Shown here: positions 5,126 through 8,128 of the stretch, piece by piece | How the letters are laid out: each line of letters opens with the position of its first letter | Numbering within the stretch: the first letter of the stretch is position 1 | NCBI RefSeq assembly: GCF_000340435.2 | Contig: NZ_CP011883.2 | Span: 2,378,763-2,410,762 of the forward strand | From: Mycobacterium haemophilum DSM 44634 | GTDB taxonomy: Bacteria; Actinomycetota; Actinomycetes; Mycobacteriales; Mycobacteriaceae | Reading direction: 5' to 3' | DNA: 32,000 nt | The notes under the pieces: model-generated | Databases searched by the model: none | The model's input: the letters and a program-made list of their open reading frames with translations, nothing else | What the model was told of the DNA's origin: nothing | Position numbers and translations under genes: made by a program

Positions 5126-5331
5126 AGTATCGCGAGACGCTTCGACTGAATCCAGGTTCACTGCCGAACGCCAGGGGACCGAGTCGGCATCGGGTTCAAG
5201 GACAACCTCGCTACCAATCCGAGGATCGGCGTGCAGGCGTCCACTGTTGCGCCCCGTGCCGCCAAGGTCCCCATAATGAGTTTTCGGCGACCGTACACTG
5301 GCAAAACGCCCGCCCGCGTGTCTCATCGGAC

Positions 5332-5337
5332 TACGAT
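5332..5337 (+). promoter_or_regulatory. -10-like hexamer TACGAT exactly 6 nt upstream of GTG 5344 (leaderless-type promoter geometry)
   Basis: TACGAT fits the mycobacterial TANNNT -10 consensus. The 6-nt gap places the predicted transcription start on the GTG. The same geometry is seen at three TA operons in this window. Confidence 0.3.
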
Positions 5338-5343
5338 GTCGCC

Positions 5344-6204
5344 GTGGCCGATGTAACGGTGGCAATATTTTCGTTCACGAGGAACGAAGCGACCGCCGTA
5401 ACGGAGTTGCTGACGCGCCTTTACATCGACCTACCGGTCTTCGGAACAACGATCTGGACGCCAACCAAGCTGGGGGTAGAGGCAGTAGAGGGCTGCCTGT
5501 CTGACGGCCGGACTGCCAGAGTGGAGCACCATCCCCTGAGTGCCCAGGGGAACGTCGTTGCAGCGGCGGCTCTCAGCAGATCAACCCGAGAGAACCGAGC
5601 CGACTACTACGTCTTCTATGGCTGCTGCGGAACAGTCGACTCGAAGCTGGTGGGTCAGGTGTTTCGGGCCGAAAGGGTGTCATACCTGTCATTGGGGGTG
5701 GTCGCCGCCTCAGCCGACGGCGAAGTCGTCAAGCTAAAAAACAAATGGATCGTCCGTACTCAACCTAACGAACAGGCCCCGCTTGACGCGATTGAGATGC
5801 GAGCCGGGTCAGCAGGTGCTCCGGGTTCTGTGTGGGGGCTGGATCTTCCCGACGCCCACGTTCTTGCAACCGACAAGGTGATCAAGGTCGGGCCAGGTGT
5901 CGCGCCAATGCCAATACATACGCCATCCAGCGGTCCCATCTACGCCAAGGGAGACTGGACGTACTCGCTGGCGCTTGCCCTGTACTCCCGAATGGCGACT
6001 AAGCCCGTACTCGTCGACATGGAGTCCTTCGGTATTGCTTCCACAATGCGCGCTTTGGGCTTGTGTGAGCGCGTACTCGTCCTGCGCGTTGCAACAGACT
6101 CCTTAAGCGATAAGGCGGATCAAAGCGATCTGGATCAACTCGACTTCCTAAGAGCGGGTTTGGCCGAGCTGGCTGCTGCGATAGCTACTATCCTGGGGAT
6201 CTAA
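5344..6204 (+). CDS. Nucleoside phosphorylase/nucleosidase superfamily (PNP_UDP_1-like fold) protein
   Basis: VTVAIFSFTRNEA (first beta strand plus acidic residue, as in MTA/SAH nucleosidases). SAQGNVVAAAALSRSTRENRADYYVFYGCCGTVDSKLVGQVFRAERVSY (GxGxvxAA ... GxxG ... vGdv core). C-terminal VLVDMESFGIASTMRALG...VLVLRVATDSLSD ((D/E)ME and [ST]D catalytic blocks). Start chosen at GTG 5344; the track's 5095 start adds an Arg/Pro-rich, non-homologous extension. Many A/T-ending codons. Confidence 0.6.
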   Translation: MADVTVAIFSFTRNEATAVTELLTRLYIDLPVFGTTIWTPTKLGVEAVEGCLSDGRTARVEHHPLSAQGNVVAAAALSRSTRENRADYYVFYGCCGTVDSKLVGQVFRAERVSYLSLGVVAASADGEVVKLKNKWIVRTQPNEQAPLDAIEMRAGSAGAPGSVWGLDLPDAHVLATDKVIKVGPGVAPMPIHTPSSGPIYAKGDWTYSLALALYSRMATKPVLVDMESFGIASTMRALGLCERVLVLRVATDSLSDKADQSDLDQLDFLRAGLAELAAAIATILGI

Positions 6205-7139
6205 TGACGCCGGAGCGGAAACCGCGGATCCTCGAGGACGAGGTGCGTAGATTACGCGCCGGCATTGTGTGGTCCGCGCCTTCGACGCGTGACCCACGGG
6301 AAGCGGAAATGGTTCGTGTTGTGTCGGCCGCGTCCCTAGCGTGGGACGGTCAGGTGGACCGGGTCGACCGTTTCTCGCGTCCGCTGCTGCCATCCGGCAC
6401 CCCGACTGAAGAGCGAGCCAACCCGGCAGTGACCGCACAGCTGTTCTTGGCACAGGTAGCTTCCGACTATCGACGCGTGGCGTCATGCGAACTCGACCTC
6501 CGCGAGGTGGAAGCTCGGCGGAATTCAGATCAGGGCGCGATGGCCCTAGAGCGTGCCGGTGTGGTAAGCCGGCCAGTGGCGCCGCTAGCTGTCGGGCAAT
6601 ACCTTGCGGCTCACGAATGTGCCGCGGATGCGGACCTGGAGAGCGTGTTGGTGCCATGGATGTCGTCTGCGGGGGATGCAGATCTCGAGTCGCAATGCGC
6701 TGCGGCATTCGGCGATGTGCTCGGCCCCTTGGTACAGGTCGCACTGGACGAGTCGCATGACCACACTCAGCTGGTGCTGCCCAGTTGGTCTAGCCATATG
6801 GGAGATGCATGGTGCATAGAGTTCCTTGCAGCAGGGGCTCAGATTCTGAAACGTCCCGCCTTGCTTAGCTCTTCACACATAGAAGGGGAAGTGATCATCT
6901 CTTCCCGCGACGGCTTAGTCGACGTGACGCAGACCATAAACAATGTCGTTGCACTCGCAGAAGCCTTCCGCCCTGTGCAAGATGTGAGAGTCAGTGCCGC
7001 TGAGAACAGAAGCAAACCGAAGATCGACCTTGTTCTGTCGGGCGATCGGCTCAGACCAGACGAGCTCAATCTGTTCCTGAGTAGTGTGCAAGACATACCC
7101 GCCGATGTAATGATCCTGGCCAACGTTGCGGATAACTAG
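6204..7139 (+). CDS. Hypothetical 311-aa protein, no recognisable domain; translationally coupled to the PNP-like gene
   Basis: ATG 6204 shares its A with the upstream TAA (TAATG at 6202-6206). Amino-acid composition is normal (A/L/V/D/E rich). The opposite-strand ORF 6148..6744 is a Pro/Arg-rich shadow. Internal duplicated DADLES peptide (AADADLES...GDADLES). Rare codons AGA, ATA, TTA, AGT, TCT occur, and the 3' third is visibly AT-richer. Confidence 0.6.
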   Translation: MTPERKPRILEDEVRRLRAGIVWSAPSTRDPREAEMVRVVSAASLAWDGQVDRVDRFSRPLLPSGTPTEERANPAVTAQLFLAQVASDYRRVASCELDLREVEARRNSDQGAMALERAGVVSRPVAPLAVGQYLAAHECAADADLESVLVPWMSSAGDADLESQCAAAFGDVLGPLVQVALDESHDHTQLVLPSWSSHMGDAWCIEFLAAGAQILKRPALLSSSHIEGEVIISSRDGLVDVTQTINNVVALAEAFRPVQDVRVSAAENRSKPKIDLVLSGDRLRPDELNLFLSSVQDIPADVMILANVADN

Positions 7140-7284
7140 TTGCCGTTGCTGATTCGCAAGGCTAGATAGGCTCGTCCTTTACCGAAAACTTCACGCCATT
7201 GATGGCCAAGCGAGGGGCGTCCGTGGAACGCGAGTGCGCTTTGCGTCGACTTGCGCGCTATCGGTGTCTTCCGGACCTCCATGT

Positions 7285-7557
7285 ATGTGCGAGTTTGCTG
7301 GACCGAGATCGCACCACAAACCCCGTACCAGAAATGCTAGCGACCTCAAGGCGGCACTACGCGTGCGCGCCGCTGAGCACGGTCGCTCCATGGAATCCGA
7401 GGTGCGCGAGATCTTGCGTACCGTATTGGAGCGCCCGTCGAGTGGTCCGGGGATGGCTACACGGATTCGACAGCGGTTCTCCGACGTCGCCAGGGCCGCG
7501 GACCTTGAGCTGCCGAACCGAACTGATCGCCCACGAGCTGCGGAGTTTGGCGGGTGA
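7285..7557 (+). CDS. vapB: VapB-type antitoxin (ribbon-helix-helix, FitA/StbC-like) with atypical N-terminus, possibly degenerate
   Basis: TRNASDLKAALRVRAAEHGRSMESEVREILRTVL matches the (IRNL.de.k.aLr.RAa.hGrSmEeEvR.IL) antitoxin block. The usual M..L.IRN N-terminus is replaced by MCEFAGPRSHHKPRTRN. The stop TGA overlaps the GTG of the downstream PIN ORF (GTGA at 7554-7557). Confidence 0.55.
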   Translation: MCEFAGPRSHHKPRTRNASDLKAALRVRAAEHGRSMESEVREILRTVLERPSSGPGMATRIRQRFSDVARAADLELPNRTDRPRAAEFGG

Positions 7558-7960
7558 TTGTCCTCGACGCCAACGTCGTGTCGGAATTGATACGGAAGGC
7601 ACACCTGAGCCCCGCGTCATTAGTTGGGTTGACAGGTTTTCCGCCTCGGACGTACTGGTCACCGCCGTTACGGCGGCCGAGCTCAGGCATAGCTTTGCCC
7701 GGTTGCCGGAGGGGCGCCGCAAGCGGGAACTACACATCAAGATCGACGGACTACTAACAGCGGATTTCGAGGGCCAGATTCTGCCGTTTGATGCGCCGGC
7801 GGCGGCAACGCACTACGCGGAAATCGTTGCCTCCCGAGAACGTGCTGGACGTCCGATCAGAGTGCGGTCGACGTCGCGATACCGGCCGGCCGCGCCCAAG
7901 GGGTGGTGTACGAGACCGCTCGTTTGCTGGCGGCTGAACGACTCCACGCCCCCGATGAGG
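7554..7960 (+). pseudogene. vapC: vapC (PIN toxin) disrupted by at least one, probably two, frameshifts
   Basis: Frame of 7554 gives MIVLDANVVSELIRKA and then nonsense. From about 7600 the PIN sequence continues in the frame of ORF 7199..8059: PEPRVISWVDRFSASDVLVTAVTAAELRHSFARLPEGRRKRELHIKIDGLLTADFEGQILPFDAPAAATHYAEIVASRERAGRPI. After about 7860 the expected D.qIAAiA block appears only in a third frame (AVDVAIPAGRAQG). The LATRN..DF end is missing. Confidence 0.55.
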
Positions 7961-8128
7961 CTGGCGTGCCGGCTTTCCCCGTCCGCAAGTTCGCGTTCGG
8001 CCGGGCGATACATGGTCCAGGGTGGATCGAGGCTAAAATTTCATGACGGTTTCAGTTGAGCAAAGGTACTGCAGCTTACCCGCGTTGCGAGAGCCGATAT
8101 CACCTGTTTGGCTTTAGTGTTGGCAGCT

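Follow-up and report, generated by a model that had tools for sequence, protein, structure and literature searches.

A mycobacterial gene pair joins a divergent MTAN-type nucleosidase fold to an orphan partner and may form a self-contained conflict module

Effectors built on the purine nucleoside phosphorylase (PNP) fold have been described in two anti-phage systems, as Cap17 in CBASS and DtcC in Detocs, where they act as toxic ATP nucleosidases under the control of attached sensor domains (Rousset et al. 2023, bioRxiv 10.1101/2023.01.24.525353). Here we analysed a pair of overlapping genes, referred to as gene 1 and gene 2, within a 32,000-nucleotide stretch of the Mycobacterium haemophilum DSM 44634 genome (contig NZ_CP011883.2, positions 2,378,763-2,410,762; hereafter the window), and compared it with 13 mycobacterial loci. 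An earlier reading of the letters and their open reading frames, made without database searches (the sequence-only reading), had proposed the pair as an undescribed system composed of a PNP-fold enzyme and an orphan partner, and no description of this gene pair was found in the literature. Gene 1 carries a divergent nucleosidase fold closest to that of the MTA/SAH nucleosidases (MTAN; MtnN/Pfs), whilst gene 2 encodes a protein that fits no placeable family and is frequently fused to the enzyme. Our leading reading, which we hold tentatively and at a little short of an even chance, is that the pair is a self-contained conflict module of the defence or abortive-infection type, in which a cognate sensor or inhibitor would restrain a nucleosidase effector.

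The comparison upheld the earlier view of the two genes as one functional unit, on the strength of in-frame fusions, sharp module edges, joint decay in one species and a gene order that is kept even among distant homologues. In seven of the 13 loci the pair is a single in-frame fused open reading frame (L002 from M. nebraskense, L004, L005, L006, L009, L010 and L025 from M. seoulense). Four of these fusions, including those of M. nebraskense and Mycobacterium sp. ACS4054, comprise the PNP domain followed by an N-domain and a C-domain that correspond to gene 2 (592-620 residues), and the remaining three, including those of M. seoulense and Mycobacterium sp. 4858, comprise the PNP domain and the N-domain alone (513-583 residues). 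A more divergent fusion (P0109) was also recovered, and an N-domain-only partner exists in M. wolinskyi (46% identical). Gene order was the same in all loci, with the overlap and a conserved upstream region common to the pair. The junctions between the two parts comprised a TAATG or TGATG overlap, an in-frame TGA-ATG or a sense linker of 1-3 codons, and the split and fused forms are therefore one substitution or one base apart. In M. gordonae (L007) and Mycobacterium sp. TY814 (L008), the genes are separated solely by an in-frame TGA and then ATG (~9997-10003), where readthrough would restore the fusion, so both forms could come from one mRNA.

Coupling of the two parts extended to more remote relatives. 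Gene 1 homologues at 38-46% identity were always accompanied by an overlapping downstream orphan of 210-328 residues, and for those of ~40% identity on soil metagenome contigs this orphan spanned 318-328 residues. Distant orphans of the A6 family are colinear with gene 2 through FG.VL.P and W....GA..L, but the similarity is weak (hhalign P 0.005, probability 7%), and BLASTP returned no match between distant A6-family partners and gene 2. In Mycolicibacterium pulveris (L027 4175-5701, AP022599.1) both genes are pseudogenes, gene 1 having lost residues ~52-102, including the QGN and FYGCCG core, and gene 2 carrying at least two frameshifts. The pair would essentially be a single protein, present in M. 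haemophilum in split form. Beside a 44%-identical gene 1 homologue in L023, the partner slot is filled by two short genes of 85 and 152 residues (6867-7634).

Gene models for the pair proved stable. Public annotation of the same M. haemophilum contig calls both genes identically, gene 2 being identical to the public protein ABH37_08865 (100% identity), and the proposed 286-residue gene 1 starting at GTG 5344 agrees both with that annotation and with its homologues, which begin MADVTV. A longer version of gene 1, open from 5095, was rejected, family members of 38-94% identity beginning at MAD(V/L). The TAATG overlap, in which the gene 1 stop codon and the gene 2 ATG have one base in common, was found as described. 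Both reading frames are conserved across species, with ratios of nonsynonymous to synonymous substitution (dN/dS) of 0.08-0.39 against the window.

The PNP fold that had been assigned to gene 1 from its core blocks was corroborated by profile and structural comparison, and the blocks themselves (SAQGNVVAAAAL, YYVFYGCCGTVDSKLVGQVF, VDMES and RVATDS) were all located. A Pfam scan identified gene 1 as a single-domain protein and aligned it to PF01048 with 21.9 bits (E 1.3e-4), short of the 25.1 set as gathering score; the fused homologue P0109 scores 26.7 against the same model, and many family members carry precomputed PF01048 matches. As a structural model we used the AlphaFold prediction of a natural fusion, P0026, which is 87% identical to gene 1 (predicted local distance difference test score, pLDDT, 78). 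Foldseek matched it to MTAN and futalosine hydrolase structures with a best E of 3e-11, a probability of 1.0 and a template-modelling (TM) score of 0.68 on the target; 474 PDB matches were obtained at E<=1e-3, and the best 50 of the 474 were all MTANs or futalosine hydrolases. A profile of 39 family members searched against PDB sequences matched MTANs alone, at E 0.04.

Residues of the hydrolytic MTAN active site were retained throughout the family. Invariant positions in gene 1 comprised E15, Q68-G69-N70, F91-Y92-x-C94-x-G96, K134-W135, T176-D177-K178, M226-E227, R248 and D252. In the hidden Markov model (HMM) alignment, the family motif dMEs falls on MTAN vEMEa and lRvvtD on iRAvSD, placing M226-E227, R248 and D252 as counterparts of that active site (E. 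coli MTAN Met173-Glu174 and Asp197; HMMER). The equivalents of MTAN Met173, Glu174, Arg193 and Asp197 are invariant in all 39 members, down to 38% identity, and manual alignment of the first strand and helix suggests that E15 occupies the position of MTAN Glu12. An active site in working order would be expected to show such invariance of its catalytic residues. Gene 1 also contains an insertion of ~85 residues (118-205) that is poorly modelled and carries the family-specific invariant motifs LKNKW and ATDKV; speculatively, its conserved lysines could suit a phosphorylated substrate. Against the NCBIfam equivalogs for MtnN/nucleosidase, futalosine hydrolase and HpnG, gene 1 scored 12.3-21.1 bits, with cut-offs of 124.7-187.1. 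With every score more than 100 bits under its cut-off, the claim that gene 1 is no housekeeping MTAN, futalosine hydrolase or HpnG was sustained. Across Pfam, NCBIfam, PADLOC and PHROGs, gene 1 obtained no matches other than sub-threshold ones to PNP and nucleosidase models.

Gene 2 had been described as lacking any placeable motif, and it matched no family in the Pfam, NCBIfam, PADLOC or PHROG libraries, whilst an exhaustive profile search recovered 31 relatives among 1.84 billion representative proteins. Its AlphaFold model (pLDDT 78) comprises an all-alpha N-domain of 13 helices (residues ~10-222, pLDDT mostly 80-95) and, after a disordered linker, a C-domain with a predicted alpha-beta-beta-alpha-beta order (241-305); no significant fold match was found by Foldseek in the PDB or the viral BFVD. 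Three apparent resemblances were set aside, namely to a CDF zinc transporter (best Foldseek E 1e-3, TM 0.16, not significant), to the MamM C-terminal domain (TM 0.44 on the target, E 0.2, not significant) and to gasdermin, the sole match of the gene 2 profile against PDB sequences (E 0.6, noise). In agreement with the earlier observation of no obvious transmembrane segment, the maximum Kyte-Doolittle value over 19 residues was 1.27, and a transmembrane role was rejected on hydropathy. A Pfam scan found no helix-turn-helix (HTH), ribbon-helix-helix (RHH) or AbrB domain. The DADLES motif does occur twice, at residues 142 and 158, but the internal duplication read from it did not survive comparison with homologues, in which the first copy is not conserved; by that comparison the paired motif is a lineage-specific coincidence and no repeat.

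The C-domain appears to be a separable part of gene 2. It is missing from three of the fused loci and from the M. wolinskyi partner, and it recurs in a protein of another kind: P0128, encoded in a complete mycobacterial genome (L026 5959-6831, AP024310.1), has a C-terminal domain ~55% identical to the gene 2 C-domain (E 5e-17), whilst its N-terminal part matches the PADLOC TIR-TM family at 3e-17. P0128 lies in a prophage-like region with small hypothetical genes and an integrase fragment, and may represent a TIR effector in decay, one that made use of this C-terminal module. Relatives of the TIR-TM family in E. coli phages are TIR_2 morons of lambdoid and P2-like phages, for example mEp390_047 between the Q and holin genes. 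The similarity between the two proteins suggests that the gene 2 C-domain is a module common to two types of nucleotide-targeting effector, PNP and TIR. Two metagenomic gene 2 homologues of 392-398 residues (P0035 and P0036) carry an extra C-terminal extension of ~90 residues with an arginine-rich tail (…RRRRRS), and this may point to a further module, possibly one that binds nucleic acid, in certain versions.

Nucleotide similarity to other genomes starts at 5259-5332 and stops at 7108-7176, delimiting a discrete module of ~1.9 kb (Table 1). These edges hold even against M. riyadhense, in which the wider region is syntenic and the immediate flanks differ. Judged by these edges and by its placement in at least three different contexts, the module is autonomous. 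Across 12 loci drawn from three genomic contexts, the 20 nucleotides that lead up to the start codon (GGnTTACGATGnCGCC) do not vary, and the same 12 loci (L001-L010, L025 and L032) share an invariant TACGAT whose last T lies 7 nucleotides before the G of the GTG start. Distant homologues (L018, L020, L021 and L023) show TANNNT 6-9 nucleotides ahead of their start codons. TANNNT is the mycobacterial -10 consensus, and such spacing to the start codon is the geometry of a leaderless transcript; TACGAT is probably the -10 element of a leaderless mRNA. A scan for E. coli-type promoters and terminators found nothing.

Table 1. Features of the gene 1-gene 2 module and of its surroundings, in window coordinates.
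Feature	Position	Strand	Description
Gene 1	5344..6204	+	GTG start, TAA stop 6202-6204, 286 aa; putative divergent PNP/MTAN-fold nucleosidase
Gene 2	6204..7139	+	ATG start, 311 aa; larger than gene 1
Gene 2 N-domain, residues 1-222	6204..6869	+	Predicted all-alpha; obligatory partner part, in every architecture
Gene 2 linker, residues ~223-238	6870..6917	+	Low confidence, pLDDT <50
Gene 2 C-domain, residues 239-311	6918..7139	+	Small, optional, fastest-evolving, atypical composition
Junction ATC-TAATG-ACG	6200..6206	+	Gene 1 stop and gene 2 start share one base
Conserved upstream leader of module	5259..5343	+	GGnTTACGATGnCGCC block immediately 5' of start codon
Candidate -10 hexamer TACGAT	5332..5337	+	6 nt before GTG 5344
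mazF (PemK) remnant	5133..5232	-	Flank outside module
vapB (intact) and frameshifted vapC	7285..8059	+	Flank outside module
vapBC	9035-9798		Downstream toxin-antitoxin run
mazEF-like pair (PemK)	~10200-10770		Public annotation
PIN pair	12391-13038	-	Downstream toxin-antitoxin run

Purifying selection acts on every part of the module, with dN/dS values of 0.08-0.18 in the enzyme, 0.17-0.35 in the N-domain and 0.15-0.63 in the C-domain. Evolution is 2-3 times faster in the partner than in the enzyme, and identity declines from the enzyme to the N-domain and then to the C-domain. The atypical composition reported for the pair, with A/T-ending and rare codons, was reproduced against 19 neighbouring genes: GC content at third codon positions was 0.661 in gene 1 and 0.643 in gene 2, compared to 0.724 +/- 0.039 in the neighbours, and five rare codons (AGA, ATA, TTA, AGT and TCT) made up 3.5% of gene 1 and 5.8% of gene 2, compared to 1.6 +/- 0.7% (z 2.7 and 6.0). 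The last 87 codons of gene 2 were the most atypical (12.6% rare codons, GC 53%). A pattern-based scan of 185,579 species genomes located the pair at 12 or more loci, all within Mycobacterium or Mycobacteriales. Old vertical inheritance with frequent loss is as likely as transfer.

Toxin-antitoxin (TA) genes and remnants of the vapBC and mazEF types surround the module in both M. haemophilum and M. riyadhense, and the immediate TA flanks differ between the two species. The sequence-only reading had bracketed the pair with a vapC remnant upstream and a decayed vapBC downstream. The downstream half of this description held: vapB (7285-7557) is intact and encodes a FitA-like RHH protein (E 1e-12), whilst vapC (7554-8059) is frameshifted, opening with MIVLDANVVSELIR in one frame and carrying on in another. 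The upstream half did not, in that a vapC remnant there gave no Pfam match and the demonstrable remnant is of mazF, 80% identical in nucleotides to part of the intact PemK gene in L003 (6064-6435) and 67% identical over 27 amino acids. No vapBC is present at the syntenic locus of M. riyadhense, which has another gene, of 147 amino acids, on the opposite strand. A dense run of TA genes follows downstream of the pair in the window (9035-13038). Within the TA cluster a small secreted-looking protein with a cellulose-binding CBM_2 domain (8108-8557; Pfam E 6e-33) shows 91% nucleotide identity in M. riyadhense.

Contexts elsewhere were mixed, and hypervariable islands are not the usual setting of the pair. 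In M. wolinskyi a complete Lamassu system (L018 8964-13017; LmuC 1e-72, LmuB 3.5e-207 and LmuA 6e-59) lies 1.3 kb downstream of the pair. A GmrSD-type gene and a transposase adjoin the P0035 copy, a serine recombinase gene lies near the L020 copy, and the L023 copy has RtcB directly upstream and an nSTAND1/AAA_16 ATPase gene 5 kb downstream. The seven-species site described below and that of the M. gordonae group, with a cation ATPase gene on one side of the module and thioesterase and CobW genes on the other, are by contrast ordinary. Also seen near individual copies were a Ser/Thr kinase gene and an HTH_17 gene upstream of the M. wolinskyi pair, and a RES-domain toxin gene 3 kb downstream of the decayed M. 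pulveris pair.

On the conflict-module reading, gene 1 would encode a hydrolytic purine N-glycosidase belonging to the MTAN branch within the PNP fold and gene 2 its cognate regulator, whose helical N-domain would most likely bind the enzyme and keep it inactive, the C-terminal alpha/beta domain acting perhaps as an exchangeable input or oligomerisation module. The module would be transcribed from a promoter of its own into a leaderless mRNA, and gene 2 would be translated by termination-reinitiation at TAATG, yielding the two proteins in roughly 1:1 amounts. A trigger, plausibly phage infection, would relieve the inhibition, and the freed enzyme would remove adenine from an adenine nucleotide or cofactor essential to the cell, bringing growth to a stop. 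In favour of an accessory or conflict character are the narrow distribution, the small number of gene 2 relatives, the joint decay in M. pulveris, the faster evolution of the partner, the atypical codon usage, the differing TA flanks, the Lamassu, GmrSD and nSTAND neighbours of single copies, and the recurrence of the C-domain on a TIR-TM-type protein. The more specific 'nucleotide-depleting, ATP-cleaving' role that had been suggested for gene 1 is pure analogy. Of the new architecture that had been proposed, the two-part unit on a nucleosidase fold is well supported, whilst its defence role, substrate and mode of control are inferred. The boldest form of the idea, a stand-alone mycobacterial immune protein, split or fused, with a Cap17-independent MTAN-fold effector that arrests the cell, a helical autoinhibitor or sensor of novel fold and a portable C-terminal cassette common to PNP and TIR effectors, seems to us somewhat unlikely.

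Several observations weigh against a conflict role. None of the 39 family members matched a PADLOC model, and descent from the known defensive PNP clade (Cap17) is unsupported by our sequence comparisons; a deep relationship may exist. The family HMM found no match in DtcC, in the eukaryotic Cap17-like PNP domains NLRN and DDAN or in a ~400-residue part of Cap17 with filters off and at E<=1000, whilst MTAN was seen weakly; hhalign scores were all weak, with MtnN the best. No host species of this family is among the rows listed of Table S4 in Rousset et al. (2023). No copy of the pair was detected in IMG/VR viral contigs, GenBank phages or plasmids. The seven fused copies, from seven species, all occupy one quiet site, between FKBP, GGDEF-EAL, DUF899 and PNPOx genes on one side and a TetR gene on the other, which looks like vertical inheritance with loss and not island hopping; FKBP and GGDEF genes are likewise found beside the copies in M. 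pulveris and M. haemophilum. Defence genes neighbour the module at a handful of loci, with no background rate to compare them with, and most other PADLOC matches among the neighbours are generic kinases, ATPases and helicases, a category to which we also assigned the matches to PD-T4-6, MADS, AriA and a helicase. Domain sharing with TIR effectors is represented by a single N-terminally truncated chimera, P0128, that lacks ~64 positions from the start of the TIR-TM profile, and the inter-domain arrangement in the P0026 model is uncertain (predicted TM score 0.54).

Many of the same observations would fit a specialised metabolic or salvage nucleosidase acting on an adenosyl metabolite, for example a cofactor, a by-product of radical-SAM chemistry or an intermediate of secondary metabolism, with gene 2 tuning its activity or localisation and no part in conflict, a reading that we consider unlikely. 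The closest structures and sequence matches are MTANs and futalosine hydrolases, the location in seven species is quiet, syntenic and beside ordinary genes, selection is steadily purifying, and the pair is without defence-model matches and absent from phages and plasmids. In the window, bioB, the gene for a radical-SAM enzyme yielding 5'-deoxyadenosine, lies two genes upstream. However, bioB is adjacent in M. haemophilum only, and no metabolic gene is conserved beside the module across its contexts. The very narrow and patchy distribution, the joint pseudogenisation in one species and the large deficit against all housekeeping equivalog cut-offs also speak against a metabolic function, as do the faster evolution of the partner and the presence of its C-domain on a TIR effector. 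Moreover, we know of no metabolic MTAN-type enzyme fused to an orphan domain of 220-310 residues without a known fold.

Were the pair instead a TA-like addiction or stress module without antiviral role, gene 1 would arrest growth as the toxin, with gene 2 as a stoichiometric protein antitoxin, and the module would be maintained as selfish DNA or for stress dormancy. Two translationally coupled genes with a predicted promoter of their own, the vapBC and mazEF genes and remnants around them in M. haemophilum and M. riyadhense, and the joint decay in M. pulveris would be in keeping with this. Yet an in-frame fusion of toxin and antitoxin in seven loci is hard to square with a differentially degraded antitoxin, gene 2 exceeds the supposed toxin in size, no DNA-binding domain is detectable in it, and carriage on plasmids or phages is lacking, all of which leaves such a module quite improbable. 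The sequence-only reading's option of a TA-like pair, taken as a classical pair with a labile antitoxin, is accordingly disfavoured by the frequent fusions, which point to an effector whose regulator is built in or attached. A secreted polymorphic toxin with its immunity gene was rejected outright: no trafficking or secretion domain is present, gene 1 begins with the catalytic fold, and a toxin-immunity fusion would be self-defeating. Recruitment of the enzyme fold to a non-catalytic or other role, for instance as a nucleotide-binding signalling protein that cleaves no N-glycoside, would account for the extreme divergence from characterised PNP-family members that the marginal PDB profile match reflects, and for the low-confidence insertion with its invariant motifs. 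Invariance of the Met173, Glu174, Arg193 and Asp197 equivalents, and likewise of the glutamate at the Glu12 position, runs counter to it and makes it the least probable of these readings.

Very few native defence or conflict systems of mycobacteria have been characterised, a gap that matters as phage therapy is tried against non-tuberculous mycobacteria. If the conflict-module reading is true, the pair would add to Cap17 and DtcC a second line of nucleosidase effectors with an independent evolutionary origin, together with a regulatory domain without known fold, and the small domain apparently swapped between PNP and TIR effectors would provide a means of finding other systems. Naturally occurring versions, whether split, with an in-frame stop or fused, already form a ready experimental series on how a partner controls an effector. 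If the enzyme is metabolic instead, the MTAN fold would gain a new substrate class and, with it, an unusual obligatory partner.

Amongst known systems, MTA/SAH nucleosidase and futalosine hydrolase are the best structural matches to gene 1 (TM 0.6-0.68), and their hydrolytic residues, a Glu in the N-terminal region, Met-Glu and Arg...Asp, are kept. Identity of the gene 1 family to these enzymes is just 11-17%, however, and the family differs from them in the added insertion, in an obligatory partner or fusion domain, in the absence of a metabolic operon context and in a very narrow distribution. The TIR-TM family (PADLOC PDLC03016) is linked to the module through P0128, which pairs its TIR domain with a gene-2-like C-domain, whereas the M. 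haemophilum pair has no TIR domain. Resemblance to type II TA systems is confined to the two adjacent, co-expressed genes, with which the TAATG overlap and the common conserved upstream region fit; in place of a small DNA-binding antitoxin there is a 311-residue protein without HTH, RHH or AbrB domains that is fused to the enzyme in seven loci.

The defence systems built on PNP effectors share with this pair a catalytic domain with a PNP_UDP_1 fold, a catalytic Asp in an equivalent C-terminal motif, a non-catalytic regulatory part that is joined to the enzyme or encoded alongside it, and the character of an accessory gene that is sometimes found beside defence systems. As the sequence-only reading had noted, no CD-NTase, two-component or STAND partner is adjacent (Pfam families, 20 kb around the pair). 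The pair departs from CBASS in that no CD-NTase occurs in the surrounding 20 kb, gene 1 has no cyclic-nucleotide-sensing domain and no PADLOC match was obtained, and from Detocs in that gene 1 lacks a receiver domain and neither a HisKA nor a HATPase gene adjoins it in the window. Here the effector is N-terminal to the regulator, with neither CD-NTase nor histidine kinase, and the partner consists of an orphan helical domain and a small alpha/beta domain, whereas Cap17 and DtcC carry a SLOG/TPALS nucleotide sensor or a receiver domain. In its mode of action the pair may nevertheless resemble Cap17 and DtcC. The closest working analogy may be CapRel(SJ46), reportedly a fused TA-type defence protein in which a toxSAS pyrophosphokinase domain is followed by an autoinhibitory domain that doubles as the sensor. 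Its enzyme class (toxSAS pyrophosphokinase as opposed to nucleosidase) and its regulatory domain are unrelated to those of the M. haemophilum pair, but in both cases an enzymatic domain and its putative regulator would be joined in one polypeptide or encoded in adjacent genes, with split and fused forms within one family.

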